Part shown: positions 10,674-10,691 of the stretch, one piece after another
How positions within the stretch are numbered: position 1 is the first letter of the stretch
How the letters are laid out: the number at the start of each line of letters is the position of its first letter
Source: Escherichia coli
Lineage (GTDB): Bacteria > Pseudomonadota > Gammaproteobacteria > Enterobacterales > Enterobacteriaceae
Length of the DNA stretch: 64,000 nt
Assembly: GCF_003334405.1 (NCBI RefSeq)
Contig: NZ_QOWM01000001.1
Strand: one strand, 5' to 3'
Notes under the pieces: generated by a model
The model's input: only the letters and a program-made list of their open reading frames with translations
Database searches by the model: none
What the model was told of the DNA's origin: nothing
Translations under genes and position numbers: made by a program

Positions 10674-10691
10674 CAAGGTACGAGCCAATCG
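10674..10691 (-). promoter_or_regulatory. Candidate BaeR box in the acrD promoter
   Basis: Minus-strand sequence TTTTTCTCCACGATTGGC closely matches the published BaeR consensus TTTTTCTCCATDATTGGC; about 60-80 bp upstream of the acrD start. Confidence 0.5.

Follow-up and report, generated by a model that had tools for sequence, protein, structure and literature searches.

The BaeR box upstream of acrD in Escherichia coli and the conserved repeat module that it overlaps

BaeR boxes and related operators

The pho box recognized by PhoB consists of two 11-bp direct repeats that replace the -35 element of the promoter. BaeR, which belongs to the same OmpR/PhoB family, governs a small core regulon comprising spy, mdtABCD-baeSR, and acrD. 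For acrD and mdtABC it has been described as the primary regulator, whose effect CpxR enhances in a manner dependent on BaeSR. The BaeR binding site has been summarized as the consensus 5'-TTTTTCTCCATDATTGGC-3', credited to Nishino et al. 2005 as quoted in two later papers, and as a direct repeat of TCTNCANAA, credited to Yamamoto et al. 2008 as quoted in a later paper. According to a secondary statement, BaeR binds the acrD upstream region in both E. coli and S. enterica. In Erwinia amylovora, purified BaeR shifts a 246-bp acrD upstream fragment in electrophoretic mobility shift assays (EMSA), and the authors of that work noted a BaeR-box-like motif at -166 to -148 within this fragment. On the other side stands a ChIP-exo study of myc-tagged BaeR in MG1655 under 5% ethanol, which gave peaks at spy and mdtA and none upstream of acrD; acrD is also absent from the BaeR iModulon, and the ChIP-exo authors concluded that acrD is regulated indirectly.

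Structural and footprinting data are available for two regulators that resemble BaeR. The crystal structure of AdeR bound to DNA contains a AAGTGTGGAG-N-AAGTGTGGAG site, the reverse complement of which reads CTCCACACTT twice. The DNase footprint of DzrR at desAB of Dickeya, Ralstonia, and Burkholderia corresponds to CGGTTCTCCATCATATCTCCATATT, in which two CTCCAT repeats lie 11 bp apart.

The narQ-acrD locus and the position of the box

The window, i.e., the whole 64-kb stretch of E. coli DNA that was analyzed (64,000 nt), contains the narQ-acrD region of the chromosome. A 601-nt segment around the box matches many complete E. coli chromosomes at 100% identity; their annotation at this place reads narQ and then acrD. 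The features of the locus are as follows.

7500..10613, minus strand: acrD coding sequence, the regulated gene, 1037 aa (WP_001273151.1, multidrug efflux RND transporter permease AcrD)
10777..12477, minus strand: narQ coding sequence, annotated with 1701 nt, upstream of acrD; stop codon at 10777..10779
10624..10627, minus strand: acrD Shine-Dalgarno sequence GAGG; ACGAGG is conserved and scores 9999 in the MAFFT alignment
10684..10701, minus strand: BaeR box 18-mer TTTTTCTCCACGATTGGC; 17 of 18 positions agree with the Nishino 2005 consensus; single occurrence in the window

The ATG of acrD occupies 10613..10611 on the minus strand, and the intergenic region that separates it from narQ (10614..10776, 163 nt) holds the BaeR box, its repeats, a -10-like hexamer, a reported CpxR site, and the Shine-Dalgarno sequence. 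The 18-mer occurs exactly once in the window, in the same orientation as acrD, and 70 nt separate its 3' end from the ATG downstream. The preliminary description of this DNA had reported a BaeR box on the minus strand a few tens of bp upstream of acrD; the sequence, the strand, and the relative position were right, and the distance is acceptable as worded. Its interval, 10674..10691, is wrong by 10 nt: the minus strand there reads CGATTGGCTCGTACCTTG and takes in no more of the box than its last 8 nt; the sequence actually lies at 10684..10701.

Match to the consensus and its circularity

The single mismatch that had been claimed is T11->C relative to TTTTTCTCCATDATTGGC, and the consensus to which this claim referred proved to be the published one. 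Given the base composition, matches with at most one mismatch to TTTTTCTCCATDATTGGC are expected 2e-4 times per window and 0.015 times per 4.6-Mb genome, and the exact 18-mer was absent from all shuffles of the window. When up to three mismatches are allowed, the acrD box is still the sole match in the window (0.17 expected).

The near-consensus status is nevertheless partly tautological, since acrD is itself among the three sites whose majority rule gives the consensus. In MG1655, the mdtA box is TTTTTCTCCCTTATTGGC, ending 53 nt before the ATG, and the spy box is TTTTTCTCCATAATTGGC, about 139 nt before the ATG; together with the acrD box they give TTTTTCTCCATDATTGGC exactly, the position written D being occupied by A in spy, by T in mdtA, and by G in acrD. 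The acrD site is thus evidently one of the founding sequences of the consensus, as judged from these three boxes, which are identical at 15 of 18 positions. For a non-circular comparison, a pattern built from the spy and mdtA boxes only, TTTTTCTCCMTWATTGGC, was scanned with at most two mismatches over both strands of the 64 kb; the acrD box was the single match, with 0.02 expected.

Conservation across Enterobacterales

Conservation was followed in close relatives of the first 350 residues of AcrD, one genome per species. This gave 80 loci at 78-99% protein identity, each taken with 700 nt of upstream sequence; they represent Escherichia, Citrobacter, Salmonella, Enterobacter, Klebsiella, Kosakonia, Cronobacter relatives, Buttiauxella, Erwinia, Pantoea, and Serratia. 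In 79 of these 80 loci, the sequence that best fits the consensus is on the sense strand. For most Enterobacteriaceae, 69 to 75 nt separate its end from the ATG; in Erwinia, Pantoea, Serratia, and a few others, the gap is 112 to 287 nt. The core TCTCCACG(A/T)TT is present upstream of acrD in about 75 of the 80 species by the strict pattern and in nearly all with one substitution. In an unanchored MAFFT alignment of 190 nt of upstream sequence, identity to the window is 90-100% across TTTCTCCACG, as well as over a stretch of about 20 nt lying farther upstream (ATAATTTACATTAACTCC), at GCTACAGT, and at the ribosome-binding site, whereas elsewhere in the 190 nt it is just 10-40%.

The profile was then re-registered on the T of TCTCCACG, with position 0 at window position 10697, which gives the anchored consensus gGcAtGATAATTTACAtTaTCTcCTt.tTTTCTCCACGtTTg.c.....ccTTgCcGCTAcAGTGa. 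The conserved elements of the promoter region and the adjoining published site can be listed as follows.

10687..10722, minus strand: whole conserved 36-bp module GATAATTTACATTAACTCCTTTTTTTCTCCACGATT (MAFFT profile; mean of 1.6 bits against 0.1-0.7 bits in the flanks)
10687..10697, minus strand: proximal 11-bp repeat TCTCCACGATT, the most conserved core
10698..10708, minus strand: middle 11-bp repeat ACTCCTTTTTT; TCTCC in most other species, with A in the window at 10708
10709..10717, minus strand: distal repeat-like element TTTACATTA (TnTnCA), 5 of 7 positions against TCTNCANAA
10664..10669, minus strand: -10-like hexamer TACAGT, 17 nt downstream of the proximal repeat
10722..10736, minus strand: published acrD CpxR site GTATAAAAGGGCATG, given in Table S1 of PMC9600279 with attribution to Hirakawa 2005; it abuts the module upstream and lies outside the 18-mer

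In the anchored profile, TTTACA occupies -20..-15 in 70 of 80 loci, TCTCC occupies -11..-7 in 60 (with TCTTC in 14 more), and TAnAGT or TACATT occupies +28..+33 in 77. The +28 spacing is constant, although the distance from the hexamer and module to the ATG ranges from 82 to 300 nt, Erwinia, Pantoea, and Serratia included. Mean information reaches 1.60 bits at -25..-5, 1.63 bits at +8..+10, and 1.70 bits at the +28..+33 hexamer, against 0.67 bits in the +11..+27 spacer and 0.12 bits far upstream; a conserved block of 1.6-1.9 bits between flanks of 0.1-0.7 bits is what a phylogenetic footprint looks like.

This block, kept in Enterobacteriaceae, Erwiniaceae, and Serratia, does not coincide with the 18-mer. 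The published 18-mer covers only the proximal repeat, the preceding T-rich spacer, and three non-conserved 3' bases. These three bases, GGC at 10684..10686, are identical in the three E. coli boxes, but among the 80 loci they carry 0.53 bits and vary as GAC, GCC, GGT, TCC, or ATC; they probably lie outside the BaeR recognition element, to judge from this variation. The acrD-specific CACG, which holds the consensus "mismatch", is itself conserved across genera.

The distance between promoter and gene differs among lineages. The module and its -10 unit lie 125-300 nt from the ATG in Erwinia, Pantoea, and Serratia (L070-L082) and also in L041, L054, and L071, against about 84 nt otherwise, which implies that those lineages have long 5' leaders or sequence inserted ahead of acrD, downstream of the promoter. 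The module is present in three Erwinia species other than E. amylovora: it lies at -300 in E. persicina and at about -153 in the remaining two. Variant proximal repeats were seen in a Cedecea sp. (L066; TTTACATTATCTTCGTAATTTCCCCACG, about -102 from the ATG) and in Shimwellia (L052; TTTACACTATCTCCTTTATTTCTTCACG, about -105); both keep TTTACA and the spacing, so the core tolerates single changes.

Repeat architecture of the module

Comparison of TCTCCA with the 78-species profile gives self-similarity peaks at -11 (TCTCCT, 4.67 of 6) and at -20 (TTTACA, 3.85 of 6), from which it follows that the block is built of three tandem repeats roughly one helical turn apart. Their order is TTTACA, then TCTCC 9 bp on, then TCTCCA 11 bp further, all of the TnTnCA type, and the proximal repeat agrees with TCTNCANAA at 6 of 7 positions. 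The block accordingly contains at least two direct repeats about 10-11 bp apart, the arrangement by which OmpR/PhoB-type operators are recognized. A promoter scan of 10500..10900 returned no sigma-70 consensus pair of -35 and -10 hexamers, as would be anticipated of a promoter that depends on an activator. On its sequence, the module fits an OmpR/PhoB-type operator overlapping the -35 region of such a promoter.

The middle repeat deserves separate mention. In the window it reads ACTCC, whereas 74 of the 80 loci have T at the position equivalent to 10708 (TCTCC or TCTTC). Of 5426 E. coli records, 3821 match a 96-nt segment spanning the module and the -10 hexamer at 100% identity, and the remaining records have at least 95% identity to it over the aligned part; the A at 10708 is therefore the common E. 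coli allele and not a peculiarity of K-12. With T placed at 10708, the 96-mer is matched perfectly by none of the complete E. coli genomes; the species representative among the 80 loci (L003) has T in the middle repeat, alongside other changes.

Comparison with spy, mdtA, AdeR, DzrR, and PhoB sites

The spy and mdtA boxes are like that of acrD in lying in the sense orientation upstream of a BaeR-induced gene, and in all three promoters a TnTnCA-like copy precedes the proximal TCTCC by 20-22 bp. By inspection, the mdtA promoter (GTTTCATAA / CCTCCATTT / TCTCCCTTA) and the spy promoter (TCTCCATCA, followed 22 nt later by TCTCCATAA) share the layout of acrD. They differ in that CCACG of acrD corresponds to CCATA in spy and CCCTT in mdtA, and the distance from box to start codon is 70 nt in acrD, 53 nt in mdtA, and about 139 nt in spy. 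The three are also set apart by the ChIP-exo data, in which spy and mdtA were detected and acrD was not.

AdeR, which controls adeABC in Acinetobacter baumannii, provides a close parallel, being an OmpR/PhoB-family regulator of an RND pump that uses two direct repeats with an 11-bp period. The acrD proximal repeat, written as CTCCACGATT, agrees with the AdeR half-site CTCCACACTT at 8 of 10 positions, and CTCCTTTTTTTCTCCACGATT agrees with the double site at 14 of 20. However, this is another regulator in another organism, and the AdeR repeats are identical whereas those of acrD are degenerate (CTCCTTTTTT / CTCCACGATT). The DzrR box likewise fronts an RND efflux operon, is bound by a BaeR/AdeR-like regulator, and has the core and spacing seen at acrD as TCTCC-N6-TCTCCA, but its footprint matches the acrD double repeat at 13 of 22 positions only; DzrR itself differs from BaeR in acting independently of phosphorylation and is distinct from the BaeR of Dickeya. 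The resemblance to the pho box is one of layout, with tandem 11-bp repeats that would lie at or over the -35 region of a promoter that has no -35 consensus and an activator of the OmpR/PhoB family; the repeat sequence is different, and the geometry at acrD is reckoned from a predicted start.

Proposed mode of activation

We consider it likely that the block is the operator at which the acrD promoter is activated by phosphorylated BaeR, the OmpR/PhoB-family regulator belonging to the BaeSR envelope-stress system. From the spacing of the conserved elements, we infer a transcription start near 10657 and a class-II-like geometry in which TACAGT would be the -10 element. BaeR-P molecules would bind head-to-tail on the repeats, and the proximal one would occupy roughly -40 to -30, counted from the predicted start near 10657, and so replace the -35 element. 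Sigma-70 RNA polymerase would be recruited by BaeR-P, as PhoB does at pho boxes, and CpxR bound at the adjoining 10722..10736 would enhance the activation. The reading of the site as a BaeR box serving envelope-stress induction of acrD, already made in the preliminary description, is borne out by the position, the orientation, the core kept in essentially all of the 80 species, and the literature. That account had also called the box expected rather than novel, and rightly so, as the BaeR box of acrD has been published; the site is already known, and its sequence is real, strongly conserved, and ordinary.

A more specific proposal goes beyond the published box, and we advance it tentatively, with slightly less confidence than doubt in it as a whole. 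The operator would be the three-repeat 36-bp module (TTTACA / TCTCC / TCTCCACG), held at a constant 17 nt from the -10 hexamer in genera ranging from Escherichia to Erwinia and Serratia, and the textbook 18-mer would mis-frame it by including the non-conserved GGC and leaving out 20 bp of conserved upstream sequence. The T->A change typical of the E. coli lineage (ACTCC) may weaken cooperative occupancy by BaeR, and this could account both for the place of acrD as the weakest regulon member and for its missing ChIP-exo peak. Alternatively, the upstream third, GATAAT-TTAC-ATTATC, would be the site of a second regulator.

Alternative explanations

Several observations weigh against a BaeR operator: the consensus match is circular, the middle repeat of E. 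coli is ACTCC and not TCTCC, and the upstream TTTACA block, which contains GTAAA on the complementary strand, could be a site for CpxR or some other factor. The main evidence against direct control by BaeR is still the negative ChIP-exo result, which we weigh as dependent on condition and affinity. An alternative view is that the block is a real acrD operator used mainly by CpxR, EvgA, or a factor for the GATAAT-N4-ATTATC palindrome, with BaeR acting indirectly. The missing BaeR peak under 5% ethanol agrees with it, as do reports that CpxR, EvgA, and Rcs also affect acrD, the GTAAA on the other strand together with a 6+6 palindrome in the upstream part of the block in most species, and the reported CpxR site directly adjacent. 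Yet the most conserved part of the block is the TCTCCA-type repeat common to the BaeR boxes of spy and mdtA, and the same type of repeat recurs in the footprinted DzrR site and the crystallized AdeR site. The best intergenic matches to the other regulators are weak (CpxR 7/10 to 8/10, EvgA 11/16, Fur 13/19), and the right arm of the palindrome varies (ACTTTC, ATTTTC, ATTAAC) while the module is kept. In E. amylovora, moreover, acrD is reported to be induced by BaeR and not by CpxR, and CpxR-mediated induction of acrD is reported to need BaeSR. We regard use of the operator mainly by another regulator as unlikely.

Two further explanations do without an operator. The T-rich stretch and the sequence upstream of it might be the intrinsic terminator of narQ, the likeness to a BaeR box being secondary. 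E. coli RNA from the 3' end of narQ to the T-run does form a long hairpin of -30.8 kcal/mol (z = -3.64; an equally good fold in 0 of 200 shuffles), which ends at CUCCUUUUUUU. A terminator scan of 10500..10900 was negative, however, and the hairpin is AT-rich with a large interior; pairing is weak or absent elsewhere, including E. albertii (-13.4) and other genera. Most species have a broken T-run (TTTATT, TTAATT, TCAATT) yet keep the TCTCC repeats, and the module is retained where the upstream open reading frame ends hundreds of nucleotides away. A conserved GC-rich hairpin followed by a U-run, the mark of an intrinsic terminator, is thus lacking here, and the narQ-terminator reading, very improbable in our estimate, was rejected because the E. 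coli hairpin is not conserved. A chance resemblance without function has nothing in its favor beyond the circularity of the consensus; it is set against the expectation of 2e-4 per window, or 0.02 for the non-circular pattern, and against deep conservation at a fixed promoter geometry, so that it is effectively refuted and barely credible. The preferred reading remains activation by BaeR-P at the repeats.

Adjoining sites and RNA structures

No CpxR box of the form GTAAA-N5/6-GTAAA was found in the 163-nt intergenic region, where the best matches reach 7/10 (N5) and 8/10 (N6), and the published GTATAAAAGGGCATG is itself a poor match to GTAAA-N5-GTAAA. Assignment of the block to Fur, EvgA, or CpxR was set aside, the intergenic consensus matches being too weak. 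The palindrome GATAAT-TTAC-ATTATC occurs in most species at the equivalent of 10707..10722 (minus strand), about -25..-10 from the TCTCCACG anchor in loci L003-L082; its right arm is degenerate in the window (ATTAAC), while the left arm GATAAT is well conserved, for which the direct-repeat model does not account. From its sequence, this arm could be the site of a second factor or a -10-like hexamer.

The hairpin at 10690..10800 (minus strand) pairs AGUUAAUGUAAUGCC with GGGCAU...UUACAUUAACU and may be an E. coli-specific structure of the narQ 3' end or a coincidence. Other genera show short GC-rich hairpins at about -45..-28 from the anchor, directly upstream of CATGATAATTT (L014, L017, L019, L020, L024, L026, and L030); these differ by genus (GCGC...GCGC, GTGCC...GGCAC, CAGGC...GCCTG), often with GTAAA in or beside the loop, and are likely terminators of the upstream gene. 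A search of 10400..11000 against Rfam at permissive thresholds returned no RNA family. Elsewhere in the window, hits at the gathering threshold were naRNA4, a REP-derived nucleoid-associated RNA, at 5151..5227 (both strands) and 29939..30020, and the ES036 (CssrF) sRNA at 52807..52849 (minus strand).

Significance

The acrD box opens no new question. What the present analysis adds to the known site is a set of corrected coordinates, the recognition that the consensus is circular yet the site independently supported, a wider three-repeat module at fixed spacing to a -10 hexamer, and a question mark over occupancy in vivo. Within the window, the box serves as a position marker for the acrD promoter and for the envelope-stress input of BaeSR. 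The wider module is of modest practical use in genome scans for BaeR targets and in the design of acrD promoter mutants, and it bears on the conflict between reports of binding in vitro and the negative ChIP-exo result.
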